DNA of 63,872 nt, filler included, from Perkinsus chesapeaki ATCC PRA-425 (GCA_013115145.1; 10 parts of 10 records of this genome joined end to end with filler, not necessarily neighbours in it); one strand, 5' to 3'; positions 25,030 through 57,551 are shown, numbered from the whole stretch's first letter. Notes: a model not told the origin generated them from the sequence alone. Program-made: numbers and translations.

Positions 25030-28000
25030 TCATACCAGCTTCGGCTCTACGTCCGAAAATATAATAATTACACATCAAATAATAATATACATAACCTTTC
25101 ATCATTACTCAGCAGCTTCCTTGCACTCCTTTAATCTTGCCCCAAGACTCAACAACACTATACTAGCCTCCTTCTCAGATCCATCGTACTCCTAAATGAC
25201 AGATAAAGCCTCTCACTCCACCATCGCCACAGAATTACCTTAACCACACGGCCTTTGCCTGGCTCGAGGAACTCCGGGACAACTGGTAGAGGAACACCTG
25301 AGACGTGGAATAATATAATAGTAATACGTAACCAACAGTAATAATTAAAAAGTAAGTAAAAAGTAATAGTAATAATATATAATTAATAATAATAGTAATA
25401 AAAAAGGTAAAAAAAGGTAGAAAGCCGTACGTAACAAAACCTATTTAAATTCTATGATGATAGCTAACAAATGAAACTTCAGTCCGAATATTAATACTAA
25501 TTATTTTTATCAATTATATCCCATCTCCACTACCTTCGCCAGATCCCCTCGGGAACCTCACCGCACTTGGTCCATCATCCAGCTTTGACATAGTGTAAAT
25601 CATATTAGCTAATTCAGCCTGAAGAACAACATAACACTTCGACAGGAGCAATTAAATGATATGCATCGGTGATGATAATCCCCACCGCCCGACTTGATCC
25701 TAAGAAAGTAGGAGCACCGCGGAGGAGCACCGAAATCTTCGGTTATCATTTCATCAGTAATGTATATCTTGCTGATCACCGACGGTTTGCGAGTCGAGGA
25801 AGTTGCGACTGTCCAGAGAAAATAATAATCATAAAATCATCAAGGAAATTACTTATTACGGAAAACAGTTTTGCAGGAAAAAATGTCACGGAAAATATGA
25901 AAATAAACGAAAATAATTTTATCAACAGTCTCCCACCTGCACGTACCTCATCGCCAGGAGCGCATATTTTCATATCGGGGATGCAGCCCAGCATGGCGAG
26001 GTCGAACTGACCGTGGTGAGTTGGACCATCAGCTCCTACGAACCCTGCTCTGTCCAGAACAAATCTAACCTAAAATGAGAAAGGATGAAAAAAAGAAATG
26101 GAACAAAACTTTTACAAGAAAATATGGGAAACCTTGGAAAGGTATGGCAAGGTTGCAGAGGGGCACAAAATGCTGGTTGAATTCATTGCTGAATACTTTA
26201 CCATAAAAATTAGTGAACCAACTGGAAAGTAGAAAAAAATATTATTTATTATCATTATAAACTATTTATATTGTCCTTCAATCGAACAAGCATATTTTTG
26301 GTTTCGAGTAATAACAGCGGGCCAACTAAACATTTCCACACCAATCCACCAACCACCGAATATCTTCACAACCTTACCGGTAGTTTCTGCAGCGCCACAT
26401 CGTGAACAATCTGATCGATCGCTCTCTGAAAAAAACAACACTTTTCAATCCTCTCCCACCCCTCCCCTCTCACCTGCATAAAACTGCTATATATCGCCGC
26501 GTACGGCACCAATCCCTCCGCTGCCATACCAGCTGCCATCGTCACCGCGTGCTGCTCACAGATACCCACATCGAACATGCGCTCCAGCCCAAATCGCTTC
26601 TCGAAATGATGCAATCCAGTACCTTTTCAATATCGATCAACAGGGCGCGCGCTTTTTACAGGACACTTACCGCCAGGCATAGCGGCAGTAATTGCGACGA
26701 TGCGACTATCCCGCTCGGCAGCGGCAATCAGTGCCTTTGCGAAAACGTCCGTGTAGGCCATTTTCTTGGGGGCGGCTGGCTGAGGCTTGGCCGTCTCAGG
26801 GGCCTTCTTGGGAGCCTCTTTCTTTCCTGAAAATAAAAACGTTTGATGGTAAGGCGGTTTTTTGCCTGATACGCTCATGCCTTCAGCCATTATGCTTAAA
26901 TATACTGGAGCTTAATTTCGTACGAGGAATAGAAAGATAGTTGAAACAGTTTAATGTTATATTATTTTTTTCGTGAAAAAAATATCGAACGAAACAAGCG
27001 ATAATGGCACGGGTCCCAAGTTATTTTCGGATGGATAATTTCCCATTGTCAATGACAATTTGTCGTAAGTAATAGTCAAGCAGTTCTGCAATTACCGACA
27101 CACTTCCGGCGGAAATTAAATATAAAAAAATTCGAAAATTCAGAACGGTCTTTCTGAATAAATTTGCAAAACGTCATCACCACACCATCGCCTTCGCTTA
27201 CCACAGGAATTGATAATTAAATAAATTAATCGTACGCCTTCCGCCCCTGGGAATCGAACCGGCGACCTCCTCACTTACCAGTTTTAACGTCAAACTGCGT
27301 AACTCCGTGCAGCTTATCGAGTGCTTCTTCAGCTGGTTTATACCCATACCCTTTTCTGGTCCTAAAATTGCCACCACAATTTAGCTAATTTAGCTTTTGA
27401 ACGCGAAAATCCTTACTTGACATGGAGCAAGATCGGCTTGGTGATCTTCCCTTCATCCATCGATTGCTTTAAATTGCTCAAAACCGTCACGAGCGTCTCC
27501 AGGTTGTGACCGTCCACCGGGCCGACATAGTAAAACCCGAGCTCCTCAAACATGGTACCTGACGGAAGTAGGAGAGGGCAAGCGGAAGCACGCAAACCCG
27601 AAACAAGCATTAAGATGATCTTCCGGGAAGGAAAAAATCATCTACCTCTCTCGGAGACAAGAAAGCTTCCCAATACGGACGAAAAGAAGCTATGCAGATT
27701 TTGCAAAAAAATCCCCATAACAAACGAAAATATGAATTGGTTTATTCTGGACCCAACATCTTATGGTGCCCTATATTTCCTCAATTGCGGATTTCTAGAA
27801 TCTGACGTATCATTACAAAATGAGTTACTACTGAAAAAATGTGAACGACAAGGGGAAGAACCACACAAAACCAAAACATTTTCCCGGAGTTTTTCGACAA
27901 TTTTTGCTTCACTCTTTCCCCACCGAAATCTCAGAAAACACGTAGAATCTAAGAAATTTCCTAAAATTTTCCCTTTCGATTCTTAATTCCAACCCTTACC

Positions 28001-31000
28001 TCGACTATAACTGGTCAATAAGCCTCGACCGTACTCCTCAATCCTTCCCAAACTGTCAGCCAACTGCGGTGGACAGAGCGCCCTACAAAACCACCAACCA
28101 TAATCGATCACCAGGGCGCGCGCTCTTTACTTCACTGCGAGTTTTAAAGTGTTTCTAGCATCCTGGAAGCTGGGAGATGATAATACCTGAGAGACCTTGG
28201 TGCAGCAACCAAGGCGTTGACAAACTATTCGAAATAATGGACGGAAATTTTCGTTTTTTTTTCACAAAAAAATCCGAGTACAAAAATATGAATGATTTTA
28301 CGGAAAATGCGAAAAAATTTTCCCATGATGCCCTATCGCGAATATGATAAAAAATAAAAATATAATGCAAATATTTCCGAAACAAATTGGGAATCAAAAC
28401 TCCAGCTCGTGATAATTCCGCTTTTTCTGGCCTCCTCTGAGCACACCTTAGATACTGCATCAGGTACAGATGAATCCATGCCACCCATCTTGCTGAGCGT
28501 CTCCGATAGTGCACCAACCTGAAGAGATATGCGGACGGAGTTACACAATATGACATAATCTATTTCACTTGCACGTTGACTCCAACTCAGTAAGAGTTAT
28601 CCTCACATTTGGGAAATACCAATGTGAGATATAAAAGTAGAAAGGCAATAAAACGGTTTCATATACCATCTATCGAAATTTTTGAAATTCTCAGGAATAA
28701 TCGATCACGCGATCGATTTCCACCAGCCTCACCGGAGTATGAACCTCATTGTAAGCCGTCGGCAGCGACACCTGTCCGTTGTCATTTAGTATGACCAGGA
28801 ATTTACGTAGCTTGAGCCATCCTGCGTGATTCATAGCTTCGTACGCCATACCACCTAAACAGAGCAATATGACCACCGCGGGAAATTTACCAGGAGAAAT
28901 ATTTTTTGCGTATTGGAATAGGAACAACTTCGTGAAAAAAAACCGCTATGGAGTTCACATGAGATTAAAATTTCCGTAAAATCTATGCAGAAAATAGATC
29001 TTCTTCACCGAAAGGGCGCTACACATTTCTCTGACACCTCTAGCCATACCTACCAGTAATAGCTCCATCTCCCACCACTGAAACAACAGTATAGTCATCC
29101 TCTGGCGTAAGTGGCAGCATGTCAGTGTCCCCTTCTCTCACCGCTTTATTATGGATACGCTTTTTAACCTGAACAAAGATACAGACTTCATCACTGTAAA
29201 ACAGCAACTCCAAGGGATAATATAAACCACAAGGGGCAACCAATCGAAGTAAGAACGGTCCGGGAACCAGGAAGTGCCTAGCAGGCACTCTTAGAATCCG
29301 GAAACAGCGGTCCAAGGATAATGAATTTATAATAGACATGTCACATGTACGCTAGGCCCGGAAATGGATATACCTTCGATATCGTTTTGGTAGAATATTA
29401 TTAAAATAGTTGCACCTCTACAAGATAGATAAAAATACAGAAAAGCGCGATAGCCAATCAAAAATTCACGAGATATTGCTCGAGGAATTATCTTTGGAAA
29501 TTTTAGATAACGGAAATTTTCCGGAAAAATTTGGGAAATTTTTATGAGCTTACATCTCTGGCGACAGCAAAACCAGTAGCGGCCGACATGGCCGTGCCAC
29601 TGTGACCAGCTCCGAAGGGATCATAAGGAGACTCTTTGCGCTTGGTGAAGCCGGACAGACCTCCGCCTTGACGGAGAGTCGACATACGTTCACGACGACC
29701 AGTAAATATCTTGTGAGGGTATGCCTGAGGGAAGACGAACATTGCGGAAATACAGTTGGAAAGTTGTGAATGGAATTTGGCAAAATAAGGGAAAATTGGG
29801 AAAAATTGAGAAAATGGGAAAAACTGGGAAAAATAAAAAAAATGGGAAAATTGGGAAAAGTAGGAAAATTTTTCAAATTATTTTCCTTCGAAATCTACGG
29901 AAGCGACGAGAACCGAGATGAGAACCCGTAACAGTATTAGATACTGAAAATATAGCAAAATTTAAGTATAGAAACAGAAAACCTTAATAGATAGGAAGGC
30001 GATATCATTTGCGAGGATCACCGTTAACTGGCTAGATGAGATCAGCGTTCCACTCTCCCCACCTGATGACTAACATCCCAGATAAGCTTGTCGTATGGTG
30101 TGTTGAATACATTATGAAGAGCCGCGGTAAGCTCAACTACACCCAAGTTGGAACCGAGATGGCCTCCGGTCTTGGAGACCGATCTTACCAGAAACTGAAA
30201 AAATGATAAATAATGACTTCGAGAAATAAATTACTGTTGCGAGGACGAAAGAAAGGTTTAGATGAAACGATTTGACGGCTTACCTTTTCATTAAGAGGTA
30301 CTGAACGATATTAGGAAAATTGGTTTTGGCAATCATTTGGAATGATTTAAAAGAAAACTGATACTATTTAGCAATAGTAGAGATTAAGTGACATTTAATA
30401 AATTAGATATTGATAATAAAAGACGAAATGAAGAACGTTCATATTATATCAAATATGCTTTATTACATCTCAATCAAGCTTTCATATATTCGCCATAAAT
30501 CAACAACAGTGACAATCGACTTGCCCCCAAACTAATGAATTTGACAAGATACTCGACCAGTACCGTATGCCGGTGGCGACGAGCACTCCACAGTGACAAC
30601 CGAAACACATTAATGAGATCCATCTTAGTCCATATCCTATCAAAACTCACTTTTCTGGTATCATGGCACAACTCTTTAAGTTCTGGGATCGACATACGTC
30701 TGATGTCCTCGGGAGAATGCACTTTATCGAGAGTTGGAGTCGCACCGTTCATAACCTCGTCAACAAGCCTGAAAAAACACGGAAAAATTTTTCCTTCTCC
30801 GAAGTAATGATAACAAGAATTGTAGATAATAAAGTACCGAGTAGGCGACAATACCATCGATCAGCTTACGCGTCATCGAGCTCCCTGGGAGCATCGTAAT
30901 CATCACCCGGTTGAGATATGTCCCTAGTGGCTTTAGTAGTGGCAGGGGGAGGGGGGACAGTAGCAGCTGCAGCGGCGCGTCTGGAGGCGGAACGACCGAC

Positions 31001-32107
31001 CTGGAAATAGAAGCAAATATTATTCAAATGATGGGTTGATGCGATGAATAGGGTTTCGGGTTTTTTTCAAAACTCAAAACCCGAATTAAATTGCGCTCGA
31101 AATGTGCCGAGTTCGTAGGACTGAAAATGGGGTGGGCAATGAGCAAGTAAACTCACCTTCCTAGCTCTTCCGGCAACACCGAACATAGCGGAGATGACGA
31201 TGCTCATTAGAGCGAAGCCGGAAAGACTACCACCAGTGAAGATCGTAGTGGGGGAACCATATTGCAAAGCTGCAGCAGCGACCTCGGGGGAAAGAAAACC
31301 AGAAGATGACAAAGCACCTGATGCAGAAGTAGAAGTATGAAGCGGACAAATATTAAAGGTAAGGAGTTAGGTCGATAATAGTGTTAATGAGGGGAAGTCC
31401 TTGCGGAGCTGTTATGCAAGTCATGAAATAAAATTGAGAAGAGTATATTATAGGGAAATAAATATAGCATAAACTACGCTGAACACGCAAACCAAACAAC
31501 TACGCATAAACATACGTAAATTACAGCTAACCAAACTAAGGGAGATATGACAAGTAGAAGTGCAATGAAGGAGTGAGCTGATGATTAACTTACAAGGCTG
31601 AGTTGGATGGGGAGATGCGACATAATGTAATGAAAGGTAAGTAATGTTGTCACTAGATAATCGAATCAATATATAAACGAAATAAATATAGTTTATTAAT
31701 AAAAACAAGAAGCAACGTAATACTATATATAATCAGCAAATGTTTTACTAAACACACCAATTGCTCAGTCGAGGCACCATCAGTCTAGTGACTTGCACAC
31801 GATCGATTAGGCCCAACTTGCAAAAAAGAAACACATAAAACATTGTTTATGAACGTCGATCCGATGACGGTATCAGTAATGATACAATTACAGATAAGCT
31901 TGATATCATATATAGATAATAACCAAATTCCAAATGATCTACCGTAGGCATATACACGACGGACTTAACCCTACTTTGAACTGTTGGAGGACTGGGTTGA
32001 ACGAATAATATATTAGTGATCATAAACAGTGACGAAATAGATAGGGCACCGAGGGCTACCAAAGCAAGCCTGGCCAAGGACTTGCTTGGAGGGGGGGAAG
32101 CTGCCAT
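25030..32107 (-). CDS. dxs: 1-deoxy-D-xylulose-5-phosphate synthase (MEP pathway, plastid-targeted), many exons, 3' end lost at contig edge
   Basis: [14 protein letters not shown]; [27 protein letters not shown]|AYPHKI; [19 protein letters not shown]; VVGDGAITG; ILNDN; [17 protein letters not shown]; [12 protein letters not shown]; [12 protein letters not shown]; VRFPRG. Joining the 31944-32107 exon to the rest is inferred. Confidence 0.95.
27238..27278 (-). other. tRNA 3'-half-like fragment (B-box GGTTCGATTCC) at the start of a DXS intron
   Basis: ..FDVKTG|GTAAGTGAGGAGGTCGCCGGTTCGATTCCCAGGGGCGG; no D-arm, poor T-stem. Confidence 0.55.
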
Positions 32108-32799
32108 TTAGGGGAAGTCAACCGAGCTGGAAAATGATATGGAAATAGAAGAAAACACAATTCGAATTAACAATGTGAATCGAACTGGGTTAAATCCTAC
32201 TGAGTGGCAAAACGCTCACTCACCAGAGGTGATTGAAGCATGATATAAATAAAAGAGATAAGCATCCCAAACAGGATACCATTACACAAAAAGCAACTGA
32301 TGGTTAATTGGTTACAAGTGACAGGCAAAAGATGTACTACAGACGGCGACGTACCAGTAATATTGATACACGTAATCGCATCAATTATAAACGTTTACTC
32401 TGAAAATACCTGATTTACGCGTACAACAATCTTTCATTAGCCAAGTATAGATTTCGAAACTAACTACTATCCGAGACTCCGACCAGCAAGTGCGCACTAG
32501 GGACATTCAGCACACAAAAATGTGCAATTGTGCAAATAAGATGTCTCCCGTGGCGAACACTCTGAAAATCACCATAAAGGTAATTATTACGATCAATTAG
32601 GTCGAGCGTGAATCATACACCCTGAAAAGATATTCACTATACTTATTTTTACAAATCTATCAGATGTATAAGAGTCGCTGCATTGCTCGTATAGCAGTCG
32701 TGAGCTCCGAAAATGAGCGTCGAATCATCAGCGCCGCCAGACATCAAAACACAACTTTTTCTCCTTGTAAAATCATTTTACAAGGAGAAAAAGTAATAA

Positions 32800-34181
32800 A
32801 TGAGCAATGAGCCTTTATTCAAGGCAAGGCAATGGGGGGGGCGCGACTTTGCAAGTGTACGCACACACACGCGACACAAGTTTTGCGGAGCACCGCACAA
32901 GTTCGCCAAGAGAGCCTCCGAATCAACCGCGAAGCTGGACCTTACAGCGAAGCTTCTGGCTCGAGGTGAATGGATTATGCACCTTAATAAGAGGATGTAT
33001 TCGAGGTGTTTATGAAGCTCCCCAGAGCCTGCGAGGAGACTATATTACTCCACCTCCACCACTGGTCAATGACCATTGGGAAAAACACCACGATCATTGT
33101 GCCACGGTGAGAGTGAACAGTTAATCGGACATCGCCACTGCATCGGTCCCAGCGAGGACTAAGATTAGTATATGAAAGAGAACCTGAGCAAAATAGATTT
33201 TTAATAGTACGTGGATACTACCGAATCGAATCATCAACACCGACAGCATCAACAGTGCTACACTGTATAAACAAGCTCAGAAGTGTGAATACCGGCAAGC
33301 AGCAGCTGAATGACAGAAAGTATCTGCTAAGGGTAAGCTGAATTGGGACACTTTAGTATCTCATTTCGGTGTGCAACCAATCAATTCCGAAGGAGACAAT
33401 TGAAGTGCTGGCGCGGAGACAGCGCCTTCTCGATTTTTATCAAACCCATTTTTTCAGGAGCATCCCTCCGACAGACAGTGAGTTCCACGTGATGCTTCGG
33501 CTCGCAAACTCACTTCCCACGCCTTGAAGGCGATAGGATCCCGCAGTCAGAATGTGTTAAGAAGGATGTGCTGTTACACTGGTTTGTTAGCTCTGGCGCA
33601 AAGTGATGGACTATAAACTGTGTTATAGATCGCAGGAGACAGAGGGAGTTTTTTGGACGTTTTTGAAGTCTTCACTGATTCCAACTGGAGTGACATGAGC
33701 AGCTGGTACGTGACCATGCACTGTAGACACTGTACCATCGGCACGGTGTGTCACAGCGTCACACTGACTCAGTTACCACTCATTGGTGTCGCTTCCCGGG
33801 CCCAACTCTACAGCGTCCAGGCAACACGCGGAACTGTGGCCCAAGTATGCCCAGCGCTCTCCCCTCGCTTGTGAACTTTGGTGAAAGCGTATGTCATTTA
33901 GCTCAGTTAAGTCTCGTTTAAGCATGCCTATTGGTTGGAAATAAAGACTCACGTTGAGTTTGAGAAGAATGAATCTTTTTTGACTCTGATTGGTAGACAT
34001 CGGTGCCAACGCTGAAACAAACCCTTCAGTGATACGAGCACAACTTGCGCTGTACAAGCTTGCTCATAGGTGTCTTGAAAAGTCGGTCGACTGTCGAAAA
34101 GATCTTGCTCAGAGACTACTAGAGCCGCTTTGCTGGCAACCAGTAGAACTTCACCGAAGATCTCGGATAGGGACCTTTTAG
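32800..34181 (+). CDS. Hypothetical multi-exon protein
   Basis: Chain of GT..AG-bounded open exons (MSNEPLFK, WILPNRIINTD, LPLIGVASRAQ, DIGANAETNP..RIGTF*); no family recognised. Confidence 0.45.
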
Positions 34182-36849
34182 AAGGATCGATCCGACGACC
34201 TTCCGCATGACAGACGAACACTCTCCCTACTCAACTAATCCAACGATAATAATCTAACCCGTGAAATAACCAGCCGGACTTGCGAATCAATAACATACGT
34301 GGACTTCCCAAAGCTCTGTATACTCTCCCCCAACTACTAAACGCAATTCAGTAAATAATGTAAACTCAGATAATCGATTGGCTCCTAAAGGACATTTTAA
34401 GACCGACACCATCTCACACCATACCACTAATGACACTTGGCGAAGTTGCCCAGTCTGTTTAGGCGATCCCCTGGCACTGCCAAGCATCAGCGGTGAGGCA
34501 GGAGCATCATCACACCGCCGCTCTCTTACAGTGCTCATCAGAAAGCTTCTAAAGTGGAGGCCGTTTGATTACGACCAAAGAGCCTCCACCGAGGAGCCTC
34601 CATCCAGATGAGGATGGGAATGAATTCACTCATGACAAATAAATCAATCAACGACATAGTCGTTTAGTACGTAATGACTCCTCCACAATGTCTCCGGTAG
34701 AAAGTTACCAGCTTCCGACCGGAGACACTTGAAGGAAGTCAACGGAAATGATATAGTCTAATTCGCCACCCGCAGGCCGATCAGGAAAATATCTTTGCCT
34801 CGTCGAATCACCGAGAGCCTCCAGAGGTAATTGGCTCCGATAAACTGGCCTCCCGGAAAGTACCTGAAAGCAACCCAGTAATTTCATGGCGCGTGACTTT
34901 CTCTTACCTCGGGAGGCACTCATATTCGCCGAAGCGATATAATTTCCTATTGGATGTGACAGTCCGGAGGCCATCGGTCTGGCCAGCGTCCCGACTCGAC
35001 CATCGGCATACGGCACGGAGGTCACCGTTCTGGAAAAGGGACAGTCACACAATTACGTGAAATATGTTAGAACACTAATCTGATTAGTCTAATCAGTCTG
35101 TTGGTGACGAGAAAACACTGGGAAATATTTCAGAAAGTTTCCTTTTTTTCTGAAATTTTTCCGTGTACTATTTCAGAACTCCCCGGTGAGATACATATTC
35201 AGAGACATGCCGACAAACATGACAAACGGTACTCACCTTGGATGGCTCAATTCGTTTGAAAAAGCACGTGCCGAGAATGCCATCGTCATCAAGAAGGGCT
35301 TGAACCGATGAGTGCGGGGGATCGTCAACTGAAAGGAGAGATGATAATGGCAAATATTTACCATCGATGGACAAGGGGGACAGCTTTGTGTCGCGAGGCG
35401 GGGAAAAGACGTAATTGGCTTCAGATCGGAAGGATTGACGAGGACCCAAATACTAGGCAAACTGAGATTTTTTCACCAGCAAGTTATCAACAAGCTATAC
35501 AATAAATGGCCTCGTAATTTCCTCATCGGCTCGTCATGGGAAATATATTCTTCAATGCCGGGGCACAAAAAATTTACCGGACTTTCGTAAAATTTTCACA
35601 TCACAACACTAATAATAAATAAAAGATACATAACTAATAACGAATATGAAGGGAAAATGTATATGATTGATATATAGTCCATAATGAGTACAGCTCTTCG
35701 AGCCGCCCCCCACCCTCTTTACCATTATGACACACCGCAACGGCCTCATCCATCAACCGATGCACGACCTCCTTCGCTCGGTTCCTCACCGGGGTGAAGT
35801 ACCCGGTGATCAGCGATTCGACGAGATTGCAATCGATATTTGACATTCGCAAATCTAACGCCACTTCCATAGATACACCATAGCTCATTATCGATCACGT
35901 GATCGATTAGCCCGCACCATAACTCCAACCAAGAGTCTGCTTGATCTACAGCTTCCCAACTCTCCACTACGCTTATTCATTCCATCGAGGAAAAATCCAG
36001 GTGTTTTTCATTTTTTCCCGAATTTTTTCCGAAAATTTTCCAAAAAACCGGATTTTCCTGAAATTTTGCCAGTAGAAAGTCAACCAAATGTTTCACTTTA
36101 CTCAACAGCACTCGACAGCACAATAACAGTCACAGAAGACATGGGTGAACAAAGGCACTCATTCCTTACTCGGCAATAGGGAACTTCTAAAATCCTAAAA
36201 AACTGAGATAACCCTGATGAGCATCACGACATCACCAACTACGTAAAGCTTTTTACAAGCCGCTCAAAAGGCCTGTGGAGAAACAAAAGACTCATCGAGC
36301 CCCACGGGCAATTGCTCCTCGGGATTCCAAAAAACTATTCCTAGCGCGGAGGAAATATAATAGAATTTTCGACTCGAAATATGCTCCTAGAACCAAATGC
36401 ATTCGGAACACTCGCCGTTCCTTTATGTCTCCTCCTGATGAGCACTAACACCACGGTGCCCATGGAACTTCTTACTAGGCCATTAACGGATGCCAGGTCC
36501 TCTACAGGCACCGGGGGGGAACCCCTTAAAGTTAAGAAATACACTATGTCAAAAAGGTAACGAGCGCACTACAAATATTTCTGGGATATGCGGAAAATAG
36601 AGATTATTCTTCATCGCGATTATATCTCTTAGACTCTGCCCTTTTAACGGTACTTAACTTCTTTATTCATCACGGAGGTCTTCGAAACGGAGTAGAATAC
36701 TAGGAATACTTATTATATAAGAATACTGTAAAAGTAGGTATATGTTTCCCGCTAAACGGAAAATTCGACCCGTTTTTTTCTTTCATCAGCTCAGAACCCA
36801 GTGCCCAAATTTTCCCGAAATTTTCCCGAAATTTTCCCGAAATTTTCCG

Positions 36850-38045
36850 CCCATCCCCCATCCTCTATTACCGCCCTATATTTATTGCCCGAATGATAAC
36901 CAATAACCGCCACCATCGCAGCAGCAAACAACACCGTAATGATCCAACAGGCTGTCATTAATTCAACCATAGAGGAATAGACCTCGGTGAGGACAACGGG
37001 GAAGGCTCGGCACCATAGACCACCCTGAAAAATGAAAAAAAAACTCTAAAATCTTTCCTTTTTTTCTTTTGAACTGCGGGATGGAACGATAAAAAATTAA
37101 TAAGAACATCAATTCCTTCTCACCGAAGAGAGCTTCAATTTCTACCCTTAGCGATGAAAATCACTTCCAGTTGGTCAGGAAAACGCTTTGAAGAGTCCAG
37201 AGTGACCGAGAGCGTTTCGCTTGAAAATATTATTGTTAATTGCCGATAGGCATCACCGAAATGAGTTTTGCGCGGCTAAGAATTTTTTCCTAGTGCATCG
37301 ACACGTACGCCTGTTTCTGAACCAAAATGTAACAAAAAAAGCGTTTCTACTGGGCTTAAGCATTTGATGAGACTCTAGGACTAATGCTAGTGTTGGGCTG
37401 ACCACCGGAGAAAAGTTGGAAACCAAATCCAGTGAGGTGTTCAGCACTCTTCTAGTTCGAGCCTATTACTACCTCTCCCTCCGCCGTTCCCTCACTAACC
37501 AACACACATTCTCGCCACATCTCCATAGTAACATTCTTGGTCTCGGCTAAAATATCATTTATAGTGTCCTGCGTTTCCTTATCTCGGCAAATCACATCCG
37601 TGAATTCACTCAGCCCCACCGGACGACCCCCTCCGACACATCCACCGTCCTCGTAGATCGAGTAGAAATCATCTCGAACCCGTCTAACCGTCGGCGACAT
37701 TTTCAGCTCGCCTTTGGCAGATCGTCCAAGCTCCGGCAAATGATATGAAATCCAAATTGAAACCACCGAGAAGATCGCGAAGATCATCGTCGCGCAGAAC
37801 CCGTATGCCACTAATATTGCGGCGCGTGACTTATTCGACGAGCTTATTATGCATCCCATCACCGCAAATATAACAAGTATCCCACTTCCTATAATTCCCA
37901 CCAGAAGCAGCTTCATCGAAAACACCGCCGGCGACTGAGCCACCGCTGTGACCCCAAATGAACCAGCCAGATAGAGTCCAATTAGCAAAATAATAATATT
38001 GAACGTAAGCAGATAAATCCTGCTTGCTGCACTGAAGATTGCCAT
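36850..38045 (-). CDS. Tetraspanin-like four-TM membrane protein
   Basis: Three hydrophobic helices (IYLLTFNIIILLIGLYL; LLLVGIIGSGILVIFAVMGC; ILVAYGFCATMIFAIFSVV), a Cys-containing large loop, and a fourth helix ACWIITVLFAAAMVAVIG at ~36900-36960; 3' end uncertain. Confidence 0.55.
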
Positions 38046-38329
38046 TACTGCTAAGAAGAAGAGGCCTGCAAAATCTTGCCCATCTTTCTCCCACTTGCAT
38101 TTCCTAAACGCAAACCCCAACTTTTCAGGCGACTATAAAGAAGCTTTCTTTCACCTATACAGACCTAATTCATCACTAATTACTACAACGAGGACGCCAA
38201 CAACAGTAACGCTCGCCCAGTTGATCGATTATCGTAATATATCGATTGTGACTATATAAATGCACATTATTCTTAAAAGCCTATAAAGATTATGTTCATC
38301 AGACATTACTTAGTAGGCAGCAGCGGCGG

Positions 38330-39453: not shown

Positions 39454-39789
39454 CGCGCGCCACAAAATTAAGCTGAGAGATAAAGGGGCTGGAGGGCAGT
39501 CACTGAAATATATCGAAAAACTTAATAGATATATATTATTATATCATTACACTTTTATGGTACAAAAATTCAAGAGTAAAGGAGGAACGATCGAATGATA
39601 ATCGATCAGGATGGCGCACGCTAACTAGAGCGCATGCGTGCACGTTGTGGAGCGAGACTGTCAAGCAGTTTTTGGCCAATTGGACTGTGGCGATGACTTA
39701 ATATTGAACTCAGTCGATTCCATATGATATTATAAGACATATACGTGGCTTTTATTTGCTATTAATTAATATATACTACATGTCTATTA

Positions 39790-40075
39790 TTATATATATT
39801 TCATACCGACACTTCCTTCGTTAATTATTATATATCTCATACCGACACTTCCTTCGTTAATTATTATATATTTCATACCGACACTTCCTTCGTTAATTAT
39901 TATATATTTCATATCGACACTTCCTTCGTTAATTATTATATATTTCATACCGACACTTCCTTCGTTAATTATTATATATTTCATACCGACACTTCCTTCG
40001 TTAATTATTATGTATTTCATACCGACACTTCCTTCGTTAATTATTATATATCTCATACCGACACTTCCTCAGTTA
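39790..40075. repeat. 36-bp minisatellite, ~7.5 near-identical copies
   Basis: TTCATACCGACACTTCCTTCGTTAATTATTATATAT head to tail, no spacers. Confidence 0.95.
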
Positions 40076-40759
40076 TTATTTTTCCAAGCCCTCTAATGGG
40101 CTGCGTTGCATCACACAATACTGATGATATGATTGGGCATACAAGCATTATGTAGGTTGCATATTTTTGACCGGCCCAAGATACTATCTGACCTGTTTTG
40201 AATCTTGCTACTGTCGGACGGCGTATCTTTTTGGCTTATCAATTTCGCGGATGGCGGAAACGCAGTTTTCGGAATTTTTTGGGTACATTTGTGCCAAATT
40301 GCGACTCTCTAGCGAAAAATTCAGAGAATTTCGGGAAGTTTCTGGGGAAAAATTGTTGTAAGGGCCGAAGTACAAATGTTAGATGTCATTGAAACTTTCC
40401 GGTGAAAAGTGTCCGAGTAAAACGGCGCCCTCAGGTTGCCCAGAGAAGATAGAGTTGAAGGCACGCAGGTTCGAACCGCGGCTGAGGGAAGTGGCGAAAT
40501 TGAGCTGCTAACTGAGGATCAGCTTATTCATAAAGGAATTGCCTGTGTAAGAATGCGGTAAAGATTTGCACGCATGCGCACGGCAATCAGGCGCAAGCTG
40601 CCTCGGTTACTAAGGACGAAACAAAGCGGGTTAAGCAATTGAAGGAGGCGAAGAGGTTTTTGATGGCAGCACTCGATCGGCAGCAGAAAAGCGACAACGT
40701 AGTAGGCCGTGGAGGAAGGGGAAACATTAGTAATATAATATTATGGCCTCGAGAATTAT

Positions 40760-40972
40760 ATACCTTTACAACATACCTTTACAGTATATACACTTATAAT
40801 ATACTTTTATAATATACTTTTACAACATACCTTTACAGTATATACACTTATAATATACTTTTATAATATACTTTTACAACATACCTTTACAGTATATACA
40901 CTTATAATATACTTTTATAATATACTTTTATAACATACTTTTATAATATACTTTTATAACATACTTTTATAA
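40760..40972. repeat. 54-bp higher-order repeat (x3) built from ~13-14-bp monomers
   Basis: TACAACATACCTTTACAGTATATACACTTATAATATACTTTTATAATATACTTT x3, then monomers TATAA(T/C)ATACTTT. Confidence 0.9.
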
Positions 40973-42661
40973 AATAATTTCTAATATACCTTGTATTAAG
41001 ATTTACTTATATTCATATGAAGGCGCTGTTTGGTAATTTCTGAGGTTTTCATTTCATAGCGGTCTAACTATTCGGCCCGACTATCTTTCCGCGGCAGTCT
41101 TCCTCCCCCCCCCCCGACTATTGCTTTGCAAAATACTCATCGTGGAGTCTTTCCAGCGACTCGAGCGGGGAGCCCTTCATTTAGGTACTTCACCGAAGTA
41201 CGTCCCGAGTTGGGATGTAGAGTAAAATATAGTGTGCAAAAAACTTGCGAAATTTCCTCCTTATTTTCCCAGTAGCTTGTATAAATTTCAGCAGTTTTTT
41301 GGTCGTAAATATTTCATGAACAAGTATCATATTATTGTCGGTGTTTCTATATTGAAATGTTAATGCTTCCTTTCCCAGTCCCGTCTGCAGCCGTCATCTG
41401 CGGATGCTGTCTCGTTCCACTTGGCTGCTGTGTTGTTGTCCCTTGGTGAAGATCCTGTTGAGGTAGAAATGGTATCTTAGGTTGATGCTGGTAAGATTCG
41501 TTTTAGGTCCGTAAGCGGCTCTCTATCCCACCTTTAAGTACGCCTACGAATAATAACGATAAAGAGTCGGGCATGCTTATGGTGAGTGGCGCGTCGGAAA
41601 ATAATGAATGCTATTCCCTCCTATCTCGCAGAAAATATCTTAACAATTCACCGACATGCGCACTCTAAAGAATATTTTGATAAGTATCTTCTGGCAGTTT
41701 CATGCGTCACCATAACCCAATTTGGATAAGATGCATATCAATATATTTCGATAACAAGGGGAAGAATCGCAGCGACTTGAGAATTCCTGAGATTGCGAAA
41801 AGTATCTTCGGAACTTGGTTATTCTCCTTTTTTAGAGCCCTGGCTTCTGTCCGACCCCAGCGACCACCGCAGAGTCGTCGCCTGGCCCGGAAAGCGACGT
41901 GTACGGCGAGCAAGGTGGCGAGGTGGGAGGCAATAGGGAAATAGTAATATTGGGGAGGAGGCTGGGATGGGTATAATGAGCGATAACAAAGATAGTTGTG
42001 CTGGATCTAGGCATTTAGGAAATTTATAAATATCCATCGGCTCTATGAAACAATGCACCGCAGATTATTGAATTAATATTTGTATTAATATTTACTGTAT
42101 ATAACAGAAGATAATTAATCTCAATAGCATGTGTTAAAATGTTCATCTCGATATTCGTATAAGTAACTAATCTTGATCGATCGCTCTGCATATGCTCAGC
42201 GGATCACAGGAAGGAGCAGAGGGTCGCAGTATAAAGTGGTATAATATTTCTATAGGGGCGGTGTAAAGTATCAATTATCGAATCATACCTGATAATTATC
42301 ATATTAACACAGTTATCATTATTGACTTTTTAATTGTCGTATCGACTTATATAATTGTCTTGGCCCCCAGTCATTTGGGGGCCTTCCGGGCTTGTGCTTT
42401 GTCCCAACTGCCCGGCCGCCCACAACAGGTGTACTCCGATGAAAGCATTTTATAGCCTGCTTAAAAGTGTGGTGCATAATAGGGAAGAATGTGCTTCCGA
42501 AATTTAGTTGGGGATCAGTGGAGGTACGGGACAGCCAACTTTGTGACGGGATTTGGGGGGTGAGAGGAGGAGGAGATATCTTCACCGTAGGTATCGGTAC
42601 AACTACTGGGAGACACCGAGATGAGTCCGGAGCAAAGGACAATATCAAGAACGCAAAATGT

Positions 42662-42706
42662 AAAAATGGACGTCCCAGGGATCGAACCAGGGACCTTGGG
42701 GTTACC
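42662..42706 (-). other. tRNA 3'-half-like fragment with T-run terminator
   Basis: GTAA CCCCA AGGTC CCTGG TTCGATC CCTGG GACGTCC A TTTTT has canonical 3'-half spacing; no 5' half upstream. Confidence 0.6.
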
Positions 42707-43034
42707 TCAGAGCTGCATTATCGAAGCGGTGGGAAGTAAGGTGTCGTACAGGCCGGCTGTTATGCCGGAGAAGTCACCACCGTTGCCGAGTTGTGCTCCG
42801 GATGTGCTGGTAAAGTATCATAGCTTCATGCAAGTAAGTTGGGGGGTTGGTGGAGTTCACGGAATGATACCAATGTTACTGGCTGATCTATTACGACTGT
42901 CGATAGGATTGCATCAATAATGCATTGACTGATACTATTACGTACTACTAGACTGTGTTATTGAATGTTTGTCGATTCTCTTTCTTCTCTCGAGTCTCTT
43001 TGACTTTATTGATAATAGACTTTCATTTTGGGAC

Positions 43035-44949
43035 ATGGGGGAAACTTTCGAGTTCGCCAGTATACATAGCTTATGTTACGTAAGCCAGCACGGGCATATA
43101 TTACTGTAGCACCTTCAAGAAAGACCTTCGCAGTGCATTTAGTATTATCTCTCTCGGCAACTAGCCCTGTCGAAGATGATCTTTGCTCAGGCCGTCCCTT
43201 CTCCTGCCGCATTCTCACCAGTGCCGTCCCAGCAGGGGTCGGAGGTCGGCTCGCTGCAGATCAGGGTAGTCGTCGGGTCAGGTCCGGAGGTTGCTGAGAA
43301 GTTTAATTAGGTCGACAGGCGGCATAGAAGTCTTTCTCGCCAGCACAGTGGGATGGTGGCTGCCGGTTGTGGAGGATACGATGATGATTGTTGTATCGAT
43401 TCAGAGTGCGGGGATAACTCGGTCATTGATTTCGACCCTGATAATGACGAACCACTTTCGGATGAGGTGAGCCGAATGAACCCGTCAAGTTGGAGATACG
43501 GCTTTTCCAGAAATGTGACGAGTTGTTGTCGGAAATAGTTAGCGAGGCGGGAAGCTCTTTGGGGCATTCACCAGGCACTACACCAAGTGAGTCCAGCTCA
43601 TGGGTATCTTGCATGCTTCAAGCTAAGATATGCCTGCAGGTTCTGAATGGAACATCTCTGATTTCAATCCTCTATTGAAGGGTAACCGCTCTCGGTCTCT
43701 GACTGTCTTCATGCATAGCGGCATAACCGGCGAAATGATTTCTAAGTAGCCACCACCACTTTCGCATCGACTTAAACAATTTGCTCAGATTTGAGATCTC
43801 TCTGGTGGACAAGAGCTCAATAGACCAGCTTTATGCGGCCTTAGAGGCTTCATTGCAGCGAGAATGCGGCTTGGGGATATCAGAAACCCATTGGGTTAGG
43901 GGAAACAGAAGGATTCGTTGTGATAAACGAATGTTATTGTCGGCTTTAGCACCGGTATTGACCTCTGGAGTATCTTGCACGCTTGAAGCTAAGATTTCTC
44001 CTTTTCAGTCTGGAAACTGTGAACTTCGTATGTGCACAGTTCCCAAGACGCCGCCAGCTGAGATGGATATCTACACGTCACGCGCCGCCCCAGAGGGCAG
44101 CATTAGACTTAAGTCCCTCACACCCCACACTTTGTGTCCAGGTCGCATAGGAATGCTCAACACCAAGTAAGATACTCTCCTCCTTCTCAGCCTCGATACC
44201 TTGTATATTACCGTTGATCTCCATCAGCCATAGCTACCTTGATAGTTGTTATGAGAGAAGACTACCGTTTTGCAAAGGGTCCCTGTCAGTTCTATTTTGG
44301 GCAGTTTCCTTTTGGTTCTGTGAAATCAACATCGAGATATCGGTGGGTTCGCAATCTTAGTTAGGCTATGCAATTCCCTCACCGTAATATCACGATCTAA
44401 GGGAAGTTACAGTGTTACTGTGGAAAAATGACTCAGTTTTGGGGACATGCAAGAATCTCTCGGAAATGTGTGAAGATTTTCCCATGTGGTGCGCTCTGGG
44501 CGCTGATGGACGTAGCTGTTATTGGTGGTTGTTGTTGTTTCAGCCCACTTCGTCGAGGTTTGGATTACTCTGTTGTTTTGGTATCTCAAATGGATTCTGG
44601 TAATTCATGTTGGTTATCTGGTAAATCTCTTCTCATCGACCATAAGCTTGGGGTTATACAATTTGCCCTTAGTGATATGCAAATTAAGAGTTTGCTTAGA
44701 CGAACTCAAGATGGGTAAGAAGAAAGATCATTTGTTAATATTATTATTAAAATCAGATTATTTGATGTTTATCTGGTTGTTGATGGTTCACTTCGCAGTG
44801 AGAATCGTCGTACAGTTGTTGTCGTTGATAATTCTGGTGTCACCCCAAATGCTCAAACTGGTGATGGAGATGTTAGTGATGGAGATAGCAGTGATTCCTG
44901 TGATACCTCTGATGTTGCCTCCTGGGCAGAGTTCGATCCTATTCTATAA
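43035..44949 (+). CDS. Hypothetical multi-exon protein
   Basis: Open exons such as LEIRLFQKCDELLSEIV, FEISLVDKSSIDQLYAALE and LFDVYLVVDG..AEFDPIL*; may be more than one gene. Confidence 0.35.
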
Positions 44950-46299
44950 CGTACATTAACTTGCTGACTTTTATTACTCCTATTGTTCCGCTCTTCGATA
45001 TCCGGCTCGGCTGCCTCTGCGCTAGGCGCCACACTGCACTGAGAATTCTTGATATTTGTATTTTATCTGCACCAATTCCCGCCACCGCAAGTTATTATAA
45101 TGCTATTTGCAACAGTCATCACATGACAGCTAGAGGTGTCAGAATAATACGGCATAACGCCTGGGCATCACTGCCCGCGAGCACAAGGTGTCATTTTCCC
45201 ACTATTCTTGTTAGACTACAATAGTTGTGTAAGATATCATCCCCTGTCATATTTTGCTTTGCAAGTCCAGTGCAACTGCCGTGACAGTGTTGGACATTAC
45301 CTGCTTTAAAGCTGTCGGTTATTGAGTGTATCATTACTGTCTCAAATAGCAGTTTCGTCAATAACAAAGTCGCTATTAGATGCAGCCTTTTGAGTTTACT
45401 AGTGGGAGACTGGGCATGCTAAAAAAGCTGTATGGAAAAATGGCGGAACGGTATTATAGCTTGTTGGCATTTCGAAGGTTGTGGGTTCGATCCTCAGCAA
45501 TGTTGTATTGTATTTGTTAGCGGTTGAAGGTAGAGAGATTTTACTAAGTATTGTCCTTTCTATTAATGGAGGATCATCAGGATTCAGCGGAGCTCAACTT
45601 CGACCCGGTAAGCGCTCCCTGGTGTTATCGACGGACGCAATTTACTTCACGTTTGTGTTTTTGTGGGCTCTTCGTTACTTCGTTACGGCTTTGCATTATT
45701 AGTTCTCCGCTCGAACCCTCACTTAGAGCTCGGCGTAGTTCCCATTGATAGGTGTGGCAGAAAGCACAGTGTTTAAATATCTGTGAAGTCGAGCAACTTT
45801 TACGGCAGCCTTACGCCAGGTTGGTCGAGTCTGGTAGGAGCAGTTCGAAAACCCAGTGTTTGGAGCAGAGTTACAAACACGCACTCAGGTGAGCGATTCA
45901 CACCAATAAAATGCCCGGCAGGCTACACTGTCATAGCCGTATTCACACTGAATGGCATGAGCCTAAAATTGGAGTTATATATACTAGCGTGTGGTCAGAA
46001 TTTCCTTACTGACTTCTCCGTCCAGTGGCATTAGAGGTCTCCGCTTATCTTCTACCCGTTTTGTGCGCAATCCCCAAGTCTATCCATCAGCCTTTTTATG
46101 TTAGTATACAGTGCCCAACACTGGGCATTCGTCCAGTCCGGCGCAGATGTCATTTCGAGTGTTAAGAATTTTTTGTTGATGTGAATGTATAAAACGATGC
46201 TTAGGAAAATCGCTTTCCTCGTGAAGAGCATTCCTTCTGAGAGGGTTCGGCGTACTTCTATGACTGCCTGTTCAGATTCTCCAAGATAACCGATCCCGA

Positions 46300-47966: not shown

Positions 47967-47977
47967 AGAAAATATAA

Positions 47978-48049
47978 GCCACTTTAGCTTAGTGGTAGAG
48001 CGTCTGCTTCGTAAGCAGAAGGTCGTCAGTTCAATCCTGGCAAGTGGCT
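47978..48049 (+). tRNA. tRNA-Thr (anticodon CGT)
   Basis: Full cloverleaf: acceptor GCCACTT/AAGTGGC, D-arm GCTT/GAGC, anticodon arm TCTGC-TTCGTAA-GCAGA, T-arm GTCAG-TTCAATC-CTGGC; ends at the contig edge. Confidence 0.97.
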
Positions 48050-48149
48050 NNNNNNNNNNNNNNNNNNNNNNNNNNNNNNNNNNNNNNNNNNNNTTAATTA
48101 ATTAANNNNNNNNNNNNNNNNNNNNNNNNNNNNNNNNNNNNNNNNNNNN

Positions 48150-48444
48150 ACATAAGTAAAGGCGCTGAAATAACGACGATGATAATTTGTCAGATGTTTA
48201 CATTTTATTAAATGAATAAATGTCATTAGATAAATAATATCCCTGCCGTTTCCAATATAACTCCATTATTAACAACACAACAAGCTTTATTATTATTTAC
48301 AATCCGGAAAGGGGATTTTCACGAAGAAAGTTAAATATTGGATTAAGGAATTGTTGACGCTCATCATCAGTTCTAAAATATAATTATAATATCGTATATA
48401 TGTTGGCCCAATCTAGCTCACCTAAAGAAATGCCCTCCCATCGG
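48150..48444. repeat. Left arm of a ~295-bp inverted duplication (partner 57552-57846)
   Basis: The reverse complement matches 57552-57846 with only a handful of substitutions. Confidence 0.93.
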
Positions 48445-49460
48445 TAACTTCATCTTTACACATTTCGCGCAGTCTTCTGGCCGATTATTGTTATAAACGT
48501 CAACAAAACTATCGAGGTCGGTGACGGGTACCTTTTGAGGATCGACAATTGTGTGACAAAAGCGATCCACTCAACCTTACAACATCATCATCAACAGCAT
48601 GAATAAACATCATTCTTGTTTCAATATTTTCTGCACATCTCTTCATCACCGGTGACATGTTAATCAATGATAACTTATTTAAAGATTCCTTCTTCCATCT
48701 GTACACCTTTTCACCCTCAGCAGTTGATCGAATGACATTACAGTATCCGATACTATTAAGGGAGGCAATCTAAAAGAATAAATAACCGTTGTTGATTCCA
48801 GACACCATGTCACATTTTCGGATGTGAATCTATTGGTAGGGCTTTGTGACATATCAAACCTGCCACTAACTGATATAATTAATGGAACTTTGGTAACATG
48901 GGGATTGCCGGCAAACATACTTACAACCGTACCACCTGAGGAGGTTATAATTCACCAGCAGCAGCAGCAAGACAACTGGTTGTTAATAAGGTACCTTTAG
49001 AATGACCCATTACACATACTGTTTCTAGTTCCCTATCCTTCTTCAACATTTTGATAGCCGCATCAATTTGGATGACCTGCAATAGTAGTACTGTTGTCGA
49101 GTTTGAATACTTGCCTCTTCATTATAGTCTGCACAGTCCCACTCACCAATTGAATCACCATTTCCGATAAAGTCAAATCGAAAAGATGCAATATTCAACG
49201 AAGATACCCATGCCTCACTCATGCTTGATATTAGTGCTAAGGAGATGAAGGTATAAAGGCAAGGCATTATCATCATAATCATAACTCTTACGTGTATTCT
49301 TATCGCAGTACAATCCATGACATATAATAGCAACATAGTTAGATGTTGATGGATGAGAAGGTGTTGTGAGTATACCACTAAGTTGGTGAATTGTAGCATC
49401 ACCACCGAATGTTGGTGATGCTACACAGTGAAACTTGATCGCCTCTTCTTTACTCGTCAT
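48297..49460 (-). CDS. Alpha/beta-hydrolase (paralogue 1), multi-exon
   Basis: VAIICHGLYCDKN, FRFDFIGNGDSIGEW, nucleophile elbow GHSK|G, SGRFDM, FIHAVDD, PMGGHFF|RTDDERQQFLNP..GL*. Confidence 0.85.
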
Positions 49461-49596
49461 TGCATTAAACAAGTAATGCTAAAACCTTATGAGAATTGAC
49501 ATTCCCGAATTGATCTACTCAAAACTACATACAGAAGGAAACGGTGGAAAGCAAATAAACAAACACTTGTCGGTGAATAGAGGTAATAAATATAAA

Positions 49597-51047
49597 TTAA
49601 CTCGATGAGTGATGGTGATATTGACCAATATTGAATCTCTTTACGAGACCGACGGCCAAACCAAGTGCAGCAAAGCCTCCAACGGCTATACCAATACCGA
49701 GGAGTAAATCATCTTTGTTCCATTTTGGTGATGCTGGAATATCTTTATTATAAATATTATCAACTCTTTGAGTAGGTGTTAGAGGTACACCATGGGCAGT
49801 GGCAGGATCAGTGCTCATTTCTGACGATTCATCATCATCATCAACACCAACTTCACCAATATGTGCTGTAGGTGTTATTGGTACATAACCTTCTGTTTTG
49901 GGCGACCCCTCCAATAATAATTCTCCTTCTACTGGTGCATCATACTCACCACTAGTCATAGTAGGTGTTATTGGAACAGTTACTGCTCTATTGCATCCCA
50001 CTTCATCATCTTCTATAGAATGGCTTCGATTTGGCATCACTAATCCCTCCTCCTCTTCATCAGTAACAGTAACTTCAATTACTTCCTGCTTCTTCTTCTG
50101 TTCACCACCACGACCATCTACTATCATTTCAGCTTCGGCCAACTCCTCTGTCTTTGGGGCATCCATCTCATAAAATTCAGATACCTTTATTTCCTCTTCC
50201 CCATTCGGTGTTACATCAGCCTCAGCCACCTCAACACTCTCACTTTTATTCCTCTCACACAGTTCATTATCCTTTACATCGACATCAGTATGGTCAACAA
50301 TTGGCTCCTTTTCAAGCTTCTCGATAACTTCTTCCTCCTTCGCAGTCTCATTAATGGATCCATCGACGGCAGCTTCGTGATCAATCGTTATTTCAGCGGC
50401 TACTTCCACAATATCACTTTTTGCTGTTGTTGCTTCCCCTGCAGCTGCCTTCTCTTCAGTTGCTGTTGCAGCTTCCCCTGTAGCTGCCTTCTCTTCAGTT
50501 GCTGATGNNNNNNNNNNNNNNNNNNNNNNNNNNNNNNNNNNNNNNNNNNNNNNNNNNNNNNNNNNNNNNNNNNNNNNNNNNNNNNNNNNNNNNNNNNNNN
50601 NNNTTGCTGTTGCAGCTTCCCCTGTAGCTGCCTTCTCTTCAGTTGCTGTTGCAGCTTCCCCTGTAGCTGCCTTCTCTGTAGTTGGTGTACTTCCTACGTC
50701 CTCACTAGATGTACTAACATTAACTCCAGTACTAGTTGCCTTCTTCTTTCCATGTCTATGATCTAAAACATCAACCCCTCGACTACATGGCATCACCACA
50801 TTACTATTACTTCTTCTTTTTCTATTCTTACCGTTACTATTCCCTTCAGCCGGTTTATTCTCCCCCTCTTCTTCTGCTGCTTGTTTCTTCTCCTCCTCCT
50901 CCATTTTCCCTGATTTTCTCTCATCAAGCTTCTTCTGTAATCTAGCCCTAGCAGTAGTGGCCTGCGGAGGGGGTACATCAGTCACTAATGATGCCCTTGA
51001 TGACGATGATGCTGATGTTTCCTCTGACGCCTGTGGTGGTACAACCT
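49597..51047 (-). CDS. Acidic low-complexity protein with C-terminal TM anchor; possibly the last exon of the TPR gene
   Basis: 462-codon ORF, Glu-rich, with ATEEKAATGEAAT repeats, ending LLLGIGIAVGGFAALGLAVGLVKRF..; preceded by a TTTTAG acceptor. Confidence 0.75.
50420..50690 (-). repeat. In-frame 39-bp (13-aa) tandem repeat spanning a scaffold gap
   Basis: ATEEKAATGEAAT units on both sides of Ns 50508-50603. Confidence 0.85.
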
Positions 51048-51129
51048 AAAATATTAATAAACCTTTACTTCGCCACTTTTATCAAACCCATTGTTATTGT
51101 TGCTATGTTACCAAGGTAACATGGCATGT

Positions 51130-53310
51130 CATTCATCGAATCTAACCTCTCTATATGTCTTAAATCCGAGAGATGTCGAAATTGTGAAAAGCTTTATAAG
51201 ATACCTTGGCTTCATCCACCAAGTAGACTAACGGATGACGAGTCGTTCTAGAGCACAGACTTGTCAGACAAAACAAAAGGGAATCGAACCCACCAGCACT
51301 AGTACCAAATCAGGGTTTTTAAGAGTCTGCCGCGCCTCCTTAAGATAATCCTCATTGATGACGCCAGTCTGCAGCATTCTAAGCCTCAACTCCATAACGG
51401 CTCTATCCATTTCACGATCCTCTAGCTTCTTCTCTTCCTGTTCCGCTGCTAGCAGAAATCCTGCCTGGACAACTTCGCTTCCATACTTCTGTTCAAGTGC
51501 GTTAACCTAACAAGGATCTTTCATGGTTCAACCTGAGATACGATGGGTCACCTTCACGTTTATTGCTAGCATCTTCAACATCTCCTTATTAGACTCTTGA
51601 GTTTTCTCATCCTTCGCTTCAGGCACCTAATATTTAACAAATATACCTCCACCAGGAATCGAACCCGCATCATTACCTGGAACTCGGTATCTCCTTCCTT
51701 AGCAGCAGCCTTTAGTATACTGCAAAACTCTCTAACATATTTTAACATCTGTCAATAATAAGTGATATTGAAATGTGAAATGCTCGTAGTTACTATATCT
51801 CTATCAGATAGTCCTTTAAGTTCCTCTAACTCTGGTGCTTCTATCCATTGTGTATCATCTTTATTAACCTTCTCTCCTTTATTTATCTACAACTACTACT
51901 ACTACCATAGTAGCTTTCCCCTTTAGTGATAACATTACTCTATCCATTCTAACAAATCCAGGACCATCAAATGTTTTAGGTATATCATTGGTTAGATAAG
52001 GGCAGGACATATCTAGTGTATCCTCATTAGGGAACCGTACTATATACCTAATAAACAACAATAACATACCTAGTAAATAGACAATATTATCGACATTATT
52101 ACGATACTGCATTTGAGTTGTCATCTTTTCTCATTTCATGACCCTGCGCTAGATCAATATGTAATACCATCGGATCAGCAGATGTATCCAATTTATATAA
52201 AGCATCTTGTGCTTTACCCATCACAGCTACTCTCATATCACCATTATCGAAGAACTCCATTATCTAAAATAATAAACAACACCACATCACCTTTGAAATG
52301 GGCCATTTTTATTCCCCCACCACCTCTTTCTTATTACCTGTTGATATCCTCCAAGCTTTTCTGTCACTTTACCACGCCATCGTCCAATAAGCAGTTGCTT
52401 ATTTAAACCCTCTCGACAACTAACTAGAGCATCTTTCAATAGTCCTTCTGAATCCTAAACATCTCTACTTATTATTCTTATACTAAATAACTTATAGCTA
52501 CTTCACAGGATTTCTGCGCCTCTTCAAGCTCGGATATAGCCTCCTCGTATCTTAACGTATCCATGACCCCTAATATTTATTTTTATTATTACTTATTCAG
52601 CCCTTCTAACGCTTTAGCTACTCTGAAATATCCCTTGGCCCACTGTGGGTTGAGTTGTGTACATTGTTTGCCATCATTAAATGCCTCGTTGAATTTACCA
52701 GCTAGAGCGTATGCAGCTGAACGATTAGACCTAACACCAGTTTTCTTATTACAACACAATATCGATTGATAGGACTTCTTCTTCTTCACATTCTAAATGC
52801 GACCCACCCATACTCGGCTGCGGATTACTTAAAAGTTGCTTTATAATACACTTCGGTGTTCAGCACGATTCACACTCACTGTAGGTAGTTCACCAAGGTA
52901 GAAGATATCAGCTAATTTTATTCTTACCAAATAAGATAAGTAATTAGACATAGTCAAATTCGACCGTCGCTCGGATGGTCCGCAATGTATGTGTACGAAT
53001 AAGCATGTTACTCCCTAAGCTGCTGCTAGGCACAAAGAAAGGTAATACCCAGTCGGATAGTAGTTCTGGCAATTTATTGATAACCATGATAAAGCCAACC
53101 TATCATGTACCCTATTACCAAGCTGTGGCATCCTGTGGGGACTGGTCTATTGCTTTAGTATAACTATTGATAGCATCATTAATATCTCCTTTTTCCTAAC
53201 CATATATTGTGATCTAATATAATATAACATATTACTAATTGTTCATTGCCTAACTTCCTCCATTCTGTGGAAGTGTTGTCATCTGTGGTAACAGCGGTCA
53301 TCGATGACAT
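51130..53310 (-). CDS. TPR-repeat protein (STI1/SGT-like TPRs plus an unrecognised domain), multi-exon
   Basis: WRKLGNEQL, GDINDAINSYTKAIDQSPQDATAW, RSNRSAAYALAGKFNEAFNDGKQCTQLNPQWAKGYFR, RYEEAISELE. Confidence 0.8.
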
Positions 53311-57541: not shown

Positions 57542-57551
57542 TGGTTTATTG

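Follow-up and report, generated by a model that had tools for sequence, protein, structure and literature searches.

tRNA-derived SINEs, which are frequent in eukaryotes and retain the 5' part of the tRNA, and tRNA retropseudogenes both disperse decayed tRNA sequence in either orientation. The origin of new introns, by comparison, is a long-standing question, and for most gained introns a traceable source is absent. Among the systems closest to the case described here are the introners (PMC9860276, Gozashti et al. 2022; Amoebophrya, PMC7789003), which are inserted DNA acting as a whole short intron, maybe with splice signals of its own; terminal inverted repeats or target-site duplications are found in only part of the known introner families, and neither 'tRNA' nor 'Perkinsus' occurs in the main text of PMC9860276. 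Intron gain through double-strand-break repair is a known route (PMC13685798), in which foreign short DNA likewise chances to be spliceable. Extra-TFIIIC (ETC) sites have a B-box but neither an A-box nor a tRNA that could be transcribed, the B-box by itself binding TFIIIC tightly and defining the site (PMC12409998). In Perkinsus marinus, Dada transposons are mobile elements that act on tRNA genes, in a genome with very high tRNA gene numbers (outlined in PMC3706591).

In three Perkinsus chesapeaki genes, four introns hold decayed 3' halves of tRNAs. With moderate confidence, we interpret these relics as descendants of 5'-truncated copies of tRNA gene ends, inserted either way and persisting where they could be spliced. 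They differ from tRNA-derived SINEs and retropseudogenes in being 3' halves only, apparently of several isotypes, with no shared body and tied to splice sites. Unlike introners as outlined in the papers above, they form no near-identical intron family and have no terminal inverted repeat or target duplication, and their source would be the host's own tRNA genes. The passages of PMC13685798 on break-repair gain do not mention tRNA genes as a recurrent donor. Compared with ETC sites as sketched in PMC12409998, the boxes, as putative binding sites, retain variable-loop and stem remnants and lie at splice sites in introns of Pol II genes. Dada (PMC3706591) enters the A-box of intact tRNA genes, whereas the relics start at tRNA positions 37-46 and have no transposon adjoining; a term search of the supplements of that paper, as far as these are searchable text, found no Perkinsus tRNA text. 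A literature search of mainly open-access articles, with this species' genome paper outside it, found no description of tRNA-derived introns in Perkinsus. The relics suggest that tRNA DNA likely seeded some introns in this P. chesapeaki DNA, a source for which we found no description in the literature searched. Such a route would need no dedicated transposon, and, in a genus of which three species are sequenced, recognisable tRNA pieces of known position would make individual cases traceable and datable.

Gene models and intron mapping

The window, that is, the whole stretch of 63,872 nt that was analysed, filler included, consists of 11 pieces of DNA of P. chesapeaki, a clam parasite, mostly joined by N-TTAATTAATTAA-N linkers; given these linkers, the host genes lie on different contigs. 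Queries of exons against proteins showed that the window encodes the P. chesapeaki proteins P0001 (a TPR protein) and P0006 (unknown). The DXS exon model comprises 628 aa and is stop-free, and the exons flanking its intron 27278-26827 match TIGR00204 positions 273-299 and 297-338. Its start is apparently at 32105, with a long hydrophobic leader (32105-31975) like that of a plastid-targeted protein, upstream of which a donor-acceptor pair encloses a weak B-box-like word at 32185.

Intron borders were placed by protein homology throughout, as GT-AG borders with colinear protein across the gap, and all four relic introns show both features. The three host genes yielded 44 mapped introns (18 DXS, 14 P0006, 12 TPR), which total 8,134 bp and have a median length of 55 nt, 23 of the 44 being at most 60 nt. 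This is 44 of 45, with DXS introns upstream of 31000 outside the count, because P0006 intron 43895-44008 was excluded where P. olseni suggests a wrong model: the P0006 model omits 20 codons at this place that are present in P. olseni (WVHDNRRIRCDKRMLLSALAP), and the true intron is probably shorter, with a start near 43955.

Both TPR introns (51676-51627 and 51305-51046) fit P0001 exactly when spliced, and the P. olseni TPR orthologs run uninterrupted over both junctions. The 51 nt of the P0006 intron 42660-42710 are in frame and without a stop, so that the splicing call rests on the gene model and on an exact gap against P. olseni, in which the 17 codons are missing from the 7 models that span the place (9 models in all).

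tRNA relics in the window

The relics and the other tRNA-like features of the window are as follows, with E values from a gapped profile covering tRNA positions 32-73.

26827..27278, minus strand: DXS intron, 452 nt, whose 5' end bears a tRNA 3' relic in sense orientation (profile match 27273-27248, E 1.5e-4; B-box 27260-27251; variable loop AGGTC)
51627..51676, minus strand: TPR-gene intron, 50 nt, with a sense relic that covers tRNA positions of about 40 to 73 and is followed by a T-rich end and AG (profile match 51674-51651, E 0.066)
51046..51305, minus strand: TPR-gene intron, 260 nt, with a short sense relic at 51293-51278 (5' side of the T-stem and B-box), then a T-run (E 0.37); the weakest of the four
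42660..42710, plus strand: P0006 gene-model intron, 51 nt, with an antisense relic (profile match 42705-42677, E 1.3e-3)
45466..45498, plus strand: tRNA 3' relic in sense orientation, some 80 nt before the ATG at 45566 (E 2e-3)
53399..53423, minus strand: weaker relic in sense orientation, some 100 nt before the TPR-gene ATG (53310), with one B-box mismatch (profile match from 53423, E 0.16)
34178..34212, minus strand: tRNA-like stretch with A at position 54, inside a 93-codon open frame (profile match from 34212, E 0.1)
47978..48049, plus strand: intact tRNA-Thr(CGT) gene, lying at the end of a contig

An initial annotation had reported an excess of the B-box word GGTTCGATYC; all the sequences that it quoted are present in the window where it placed them, and the excess is real. 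The word occurs six times in the whole window (2312, 27260, 42688, 51290 and 51665 on the minus strand, 45484 on the plus strand) against 0.16 expected from 100 dinucleotide shuffles, none of which reached six, and 0.15-0.29 under Markov models of orders 0-4. It lies inside 4 of the 44 mapped introns, a rate that overstates the genome-wide one because the three genes were picked for containing hits, and it is absent from their exons (5,079 bp), which hold three loose B-box matches. It is also absent from about 13 kb of retroelement-like long open frames, identified by eye and without a profile test; these intron-free frames (7459-16300 and 58211-62618) resemble LTR retrotransposon gag-pol.

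tRNA likeness was scored with a matrix of 115 distinct tRNAs, weighted by isotype, which had been retrieved through a pattern in the D-arm and so without reference to the T-arm; they come from viral contigs, are unrelated and not from Perkinsus, and over-represent Thr and Asn. The four relic introns scored 17.4-23.1 bits, with p at the floor of 0.005 set by 200 shuffles, against at most 11.3 bits for the remaining 40, and p was at most 0.02 for 6 of the 44. Window-wide, eight matches reached 15 bits or more, the real tRNA included, compared with 0.6 in shuffles. The gapped profile ranked the real tRNA first and the DXS relic next, and gave an exon site at 35311 an E value of 0.27. In three of 17 non-tRNA hits selected on the B-box alone, AGGT(C/T) stands precisely where the variable loop is expected (binomial p 4e-6). 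Likeness past the B-box, in the variable loop and T-stem, is clear for 27278, 42660 and 45466 and weaker for 51676 and 51305. Since the pieces reach past the B-box into the variable loop, they are very probably derived from tRNA, in agreement with the ancestry first proposed for them. Chance matches would be a scarcely credible explanation: loose B-box matches do exist in exons, among them 40469, 35305 and perhaps 34192, but the excess of the word, the variable-loop result, the matrix hits and the profile E values of 1.5e-4 to 2e-3 all speak against it, and for the strongest three sites chance is ruled out.

ARAGORN and Rfam, run over the window, found a functional tRNA only at 47978-48049, the relics having no full cloverleaf, and Rfam left the relic fragments undetected even at E 10. 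Their profile matches begin at tRNA position 33 or later, with an intact B-box and no A-box. Folding z-scores lay between -0.56 and 0.64 for all nine pieces, no relic folding better than shuffles; the test has little power, as the real tRNA half also falls within this range. In pattern scans of viral and metagenome contigs, ARAGORN recognised a tRNA at 14/18, 37/42, 14/17, 119/120 and 1/2 loci, and because these patterns include the B-box and mix isotypes the scans were not used for naming parent tRNAs.

Several candidates were set aside. The sixth copy of the word, at 2312, has flanks that are not tRNA-like (profile E 3.5); 35305, 44931 and 37455 are exonic by frame reading; and 32185 and 5998 are too weak for counting. 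The open frame at 34192 has no match in Pfam or Atlas.

Placement relative to splice sites

For the introns beginning at 27278, 51676 and 51305 the initial annotation was right, the box lying 11-18 nt inside the 5' end of homology-supported introns. Its general rule, a box just inside the 5' end on the sense strand, is not supported, as one copy is antisense and spans its intron. This is the piece at 42706, which had been listed behind a minus-strand donor with the strand of the host gene left undecided; it is no such donor, the host gene being on the plus strand, and the piece fills intron 42660-42710. On the minus strand, tRNA positions 37-73 (42703-42667) and a T5 run (42666-42662) make up 42 of the 51 bases, in the order anticodon-side AA, stem, AGGTC, T-arm with one mismatch, seven-base acceptor strand, A73 and TTTTT. 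The supposed GC-donor case at 40461 falls, because this site, like 40469, is within a coding exon of the P0006 model (EGTQVRT). The proposed intron 45478-45520 precedes the start codon, which the P. olseni ortholog P0009 places at 45566; its GT at 45478 is that of the variable-loop AG|GT in relic 45466..45498, and the segment is a possible 5' UTR intron. Relic 53399..53423 may possibly lie within a 5' UTR intron as well.

A link to the donor is supported for the sense copies. The B-box is at most 20 nt from the donor in the 452-nt and 260-nt introns (chance 0.045 and 0.08), and the joint chance of donor-end placement for the three sense copies is 0.002; in introns of 45-55 nt every insert falls near an end. 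The donor corresponds to different tRNA positions, about 34-35 at 27278, 37 at 51305, 40-41 at 51676 and 46 at 45478, if the latter is a donor. Such variation would be expected if the copies were truncated to different extents at the 5' end and a usable GT was then selected for.

One family or many

The pieces had also been suggested as possible relics of a SINE or introner, and tRNA-derived SINEs are common among eukaryotes. Moreover, one record of the source run has at least 23 letters in common with the window from 42678. Descent from a single such family is nevertheless very improbable. The flanks of six relics share only 4-13 of 26 bases pairwise within the window, no more than with the unrelated tRNA-Thr, and the comparison across the window revealed no shared body, A-box, terminal inverted repeat or target duplication, so that neither the head with A- and B-box nor the common body and tail of a tRNA-derived SINE is present. 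The longest end repeat in the relic introns is 2-4 nt, and boundary repeats are 0-4 nt in the four relic introns versus 0-5 nt in other introns. A DNA sequencing run compared with 42620-42760 at 80% likeness returned the source contig alone. Finally, the relics retain the 3' part of the tRNA, while SINEs retain the 5' part. As the relics differ from one another, they do not represent a single SINE; the differences between them in variable loop and stem suggest that several tRNAs were parents. No parent was found among the matches listed when one DNA run, possibly the source, was compared with 26100-46000 and 42620-42760, and the window's own tRNA-Thr(CGT) was rejected as a parent, having only 7-13 of 26 flank bases in common.

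Origin of the introns

The sequences, their tRNA likeness, their placement in homology-supported introns, the two orientations and the broken stems are seen directly. That the insert created the intron is about as likely as not. We propose that 5'-truncated tRNA gene ends were copied to new genic places in either direction and that, within coding sequence, only inserts removed by splicing would persist. The source would be a tRNA gene or its raw transcript: in the one clear case, 42660-42710, the T-run comes straight after position 73 with no added CCA, which argues against a CCA-ended tRNA. Copying might proceed by reverse transcription primed at a DNA break or by DNA-templated break repair from the many tRNA genes. 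At the exon end beside the antisense copy there is an A-run in which the first bases of the insert recur; priming at a break would leave such a repeat, although this is a single case. Substrate would be plentiful in the genus, given the more than 500 copies among five tRNA types counted for P. marinus (PMC3706591).

The 3' half of a tRNA is suited to splicing. In the window's tRNA-Thr(CGT), the anticodon loop reads GTAAGC, a donor-like word, and AG|GT occurs in the variable loop, and the terminator is rich in T. In the sense copies, a GT of the anticodon arm or variable loop may have turned into the donor and the T-rich tail into the acceptor side; in the antisense copy, a GT after the complement of the T-run and an AG at the anticodon side could have served. 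The long introns would have been lengthened later through downstream insertions.

Later insertion into old introns is a serious rival to gain, though we consider it somewhat unlikely overall. The tRNA pieces would have entered existing introns or replaced their sequence, deletions trimming them to about 50 nt, and introns would merely tolerate inserts in a gene-dense genome. In the P0006 gene, several of the other exon borders coincide with the start or end of partial P. olseni models, so that many intron positions, apparently common to both species, predate the species split and could have received inserts. Two relics sit upstream of start codons rather than in coding introns, and other repeats also gather in introns. 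In one DNA run, probably the source, the matches listed contained no joint skipping the four introns and no intron-less allele, which also counts against gain. On the other hand, the relics adjoin the donor in both long introns, and one relic occupies its intron nearly end to end.

Possible retention of the B-box

Outer T-stem pairs are intact at 6 of 12 places in the relics versus 332 of 345 in real tRNAs. In contrast, exact boxes in the 44 introns number 4 against 0.37 expected, with one-mismatch boxes (6, one of them the other strand of 42660) showing no excess over the 8.8 +/- 3.3 expected. Neutral decay of 10-20% would add 4-9 one-mismatch boxes, and the Poisson p is about 0.03-0.01 for 10-15% decay, by a hand calculation on four sites, post hoc and with a substitution-only model. 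In this small sample there are hints that the B-box is better kept than the stems, which would suggest selection on a DNA word rather than an RNA fold, as at ETC sites; an intact B-box with no A-box is also the sequence make-up of such sites.

Whatever their origin, the B-boxes may have been selectively kept as TFIIIC docking sites inside Pol II genes, a tentative suggestion, raised already in the initial annotation, that is compatible with tRNA gene ends as the source of the introns. It would agree with the box counts, with the broken stems and lack of folding, with the irrelevance of orientation, as for a DNA site, and with tight TFIIIC binding by the B-box alone as summarised in PMC12409998. 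Against it stand the few sites and the post hoc, substitution-only test, and truncation or small insertions could account for the broken stems. If the boxes bind TFIIIC, introns of a compact genome would have a second use in anchoring chromatin. The combined scenario, in which Perkinsus builds spliceosomal introns from its own tRNA gene ends, tRNA anatomy giving splice sites either way and the B-box then being kept as a putative TFIIIC docking site, is more doubtful still.

Other repeats in and near the introns

Repeated pieces underlie at least 7 of the 23 short introns, a pattern in keeping with introns that small inserts seeded or overwrote. A 24-nt element whose ends are inverted (ATCTT...AAGAT) occurs at 41474-41497 on the minus strand and at 43606-43629, 43972-43995 and 51516-51539 on the plus strand, four copies versus 0 expected (three of them having served to build the pattern), and every copy lies in an intron or a likely intron. 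They lie in short introns of two genes, in both orientations relative to the transcript, and many contigs of the source run match 43595-43633 and 43970 among the matches listed. Two 48-nt DXS introns have a 28-nt motif in common (26632-26659 and 28103-28130; 26/28 bases, 93%) with a GCGCGC core and ATCGAT, possibly an introner-like family; a third copy is intergenic (39601-39628).

Short motifs at 28718, 35890, 35908 and 45126 each occur in at least 7-9 other contigs of the source run, with joints near 34900 and 38232, and those near 28719 and 35888-35909 are ATCGAT-bounded palindromes. AT-rich tandem repeats at 39793-40075 and 40755-40950, with periods of 36 nt and about 13/54 nt, lie upstream of and inside the P0006 gene. 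Lastly, an inverted duplication of 298 nt (48150-48447 and 57549-57846), its two copies 97% complementary, lies downstream of two paralogous genes that look hydrolase-like by eye and face outward on one contig.
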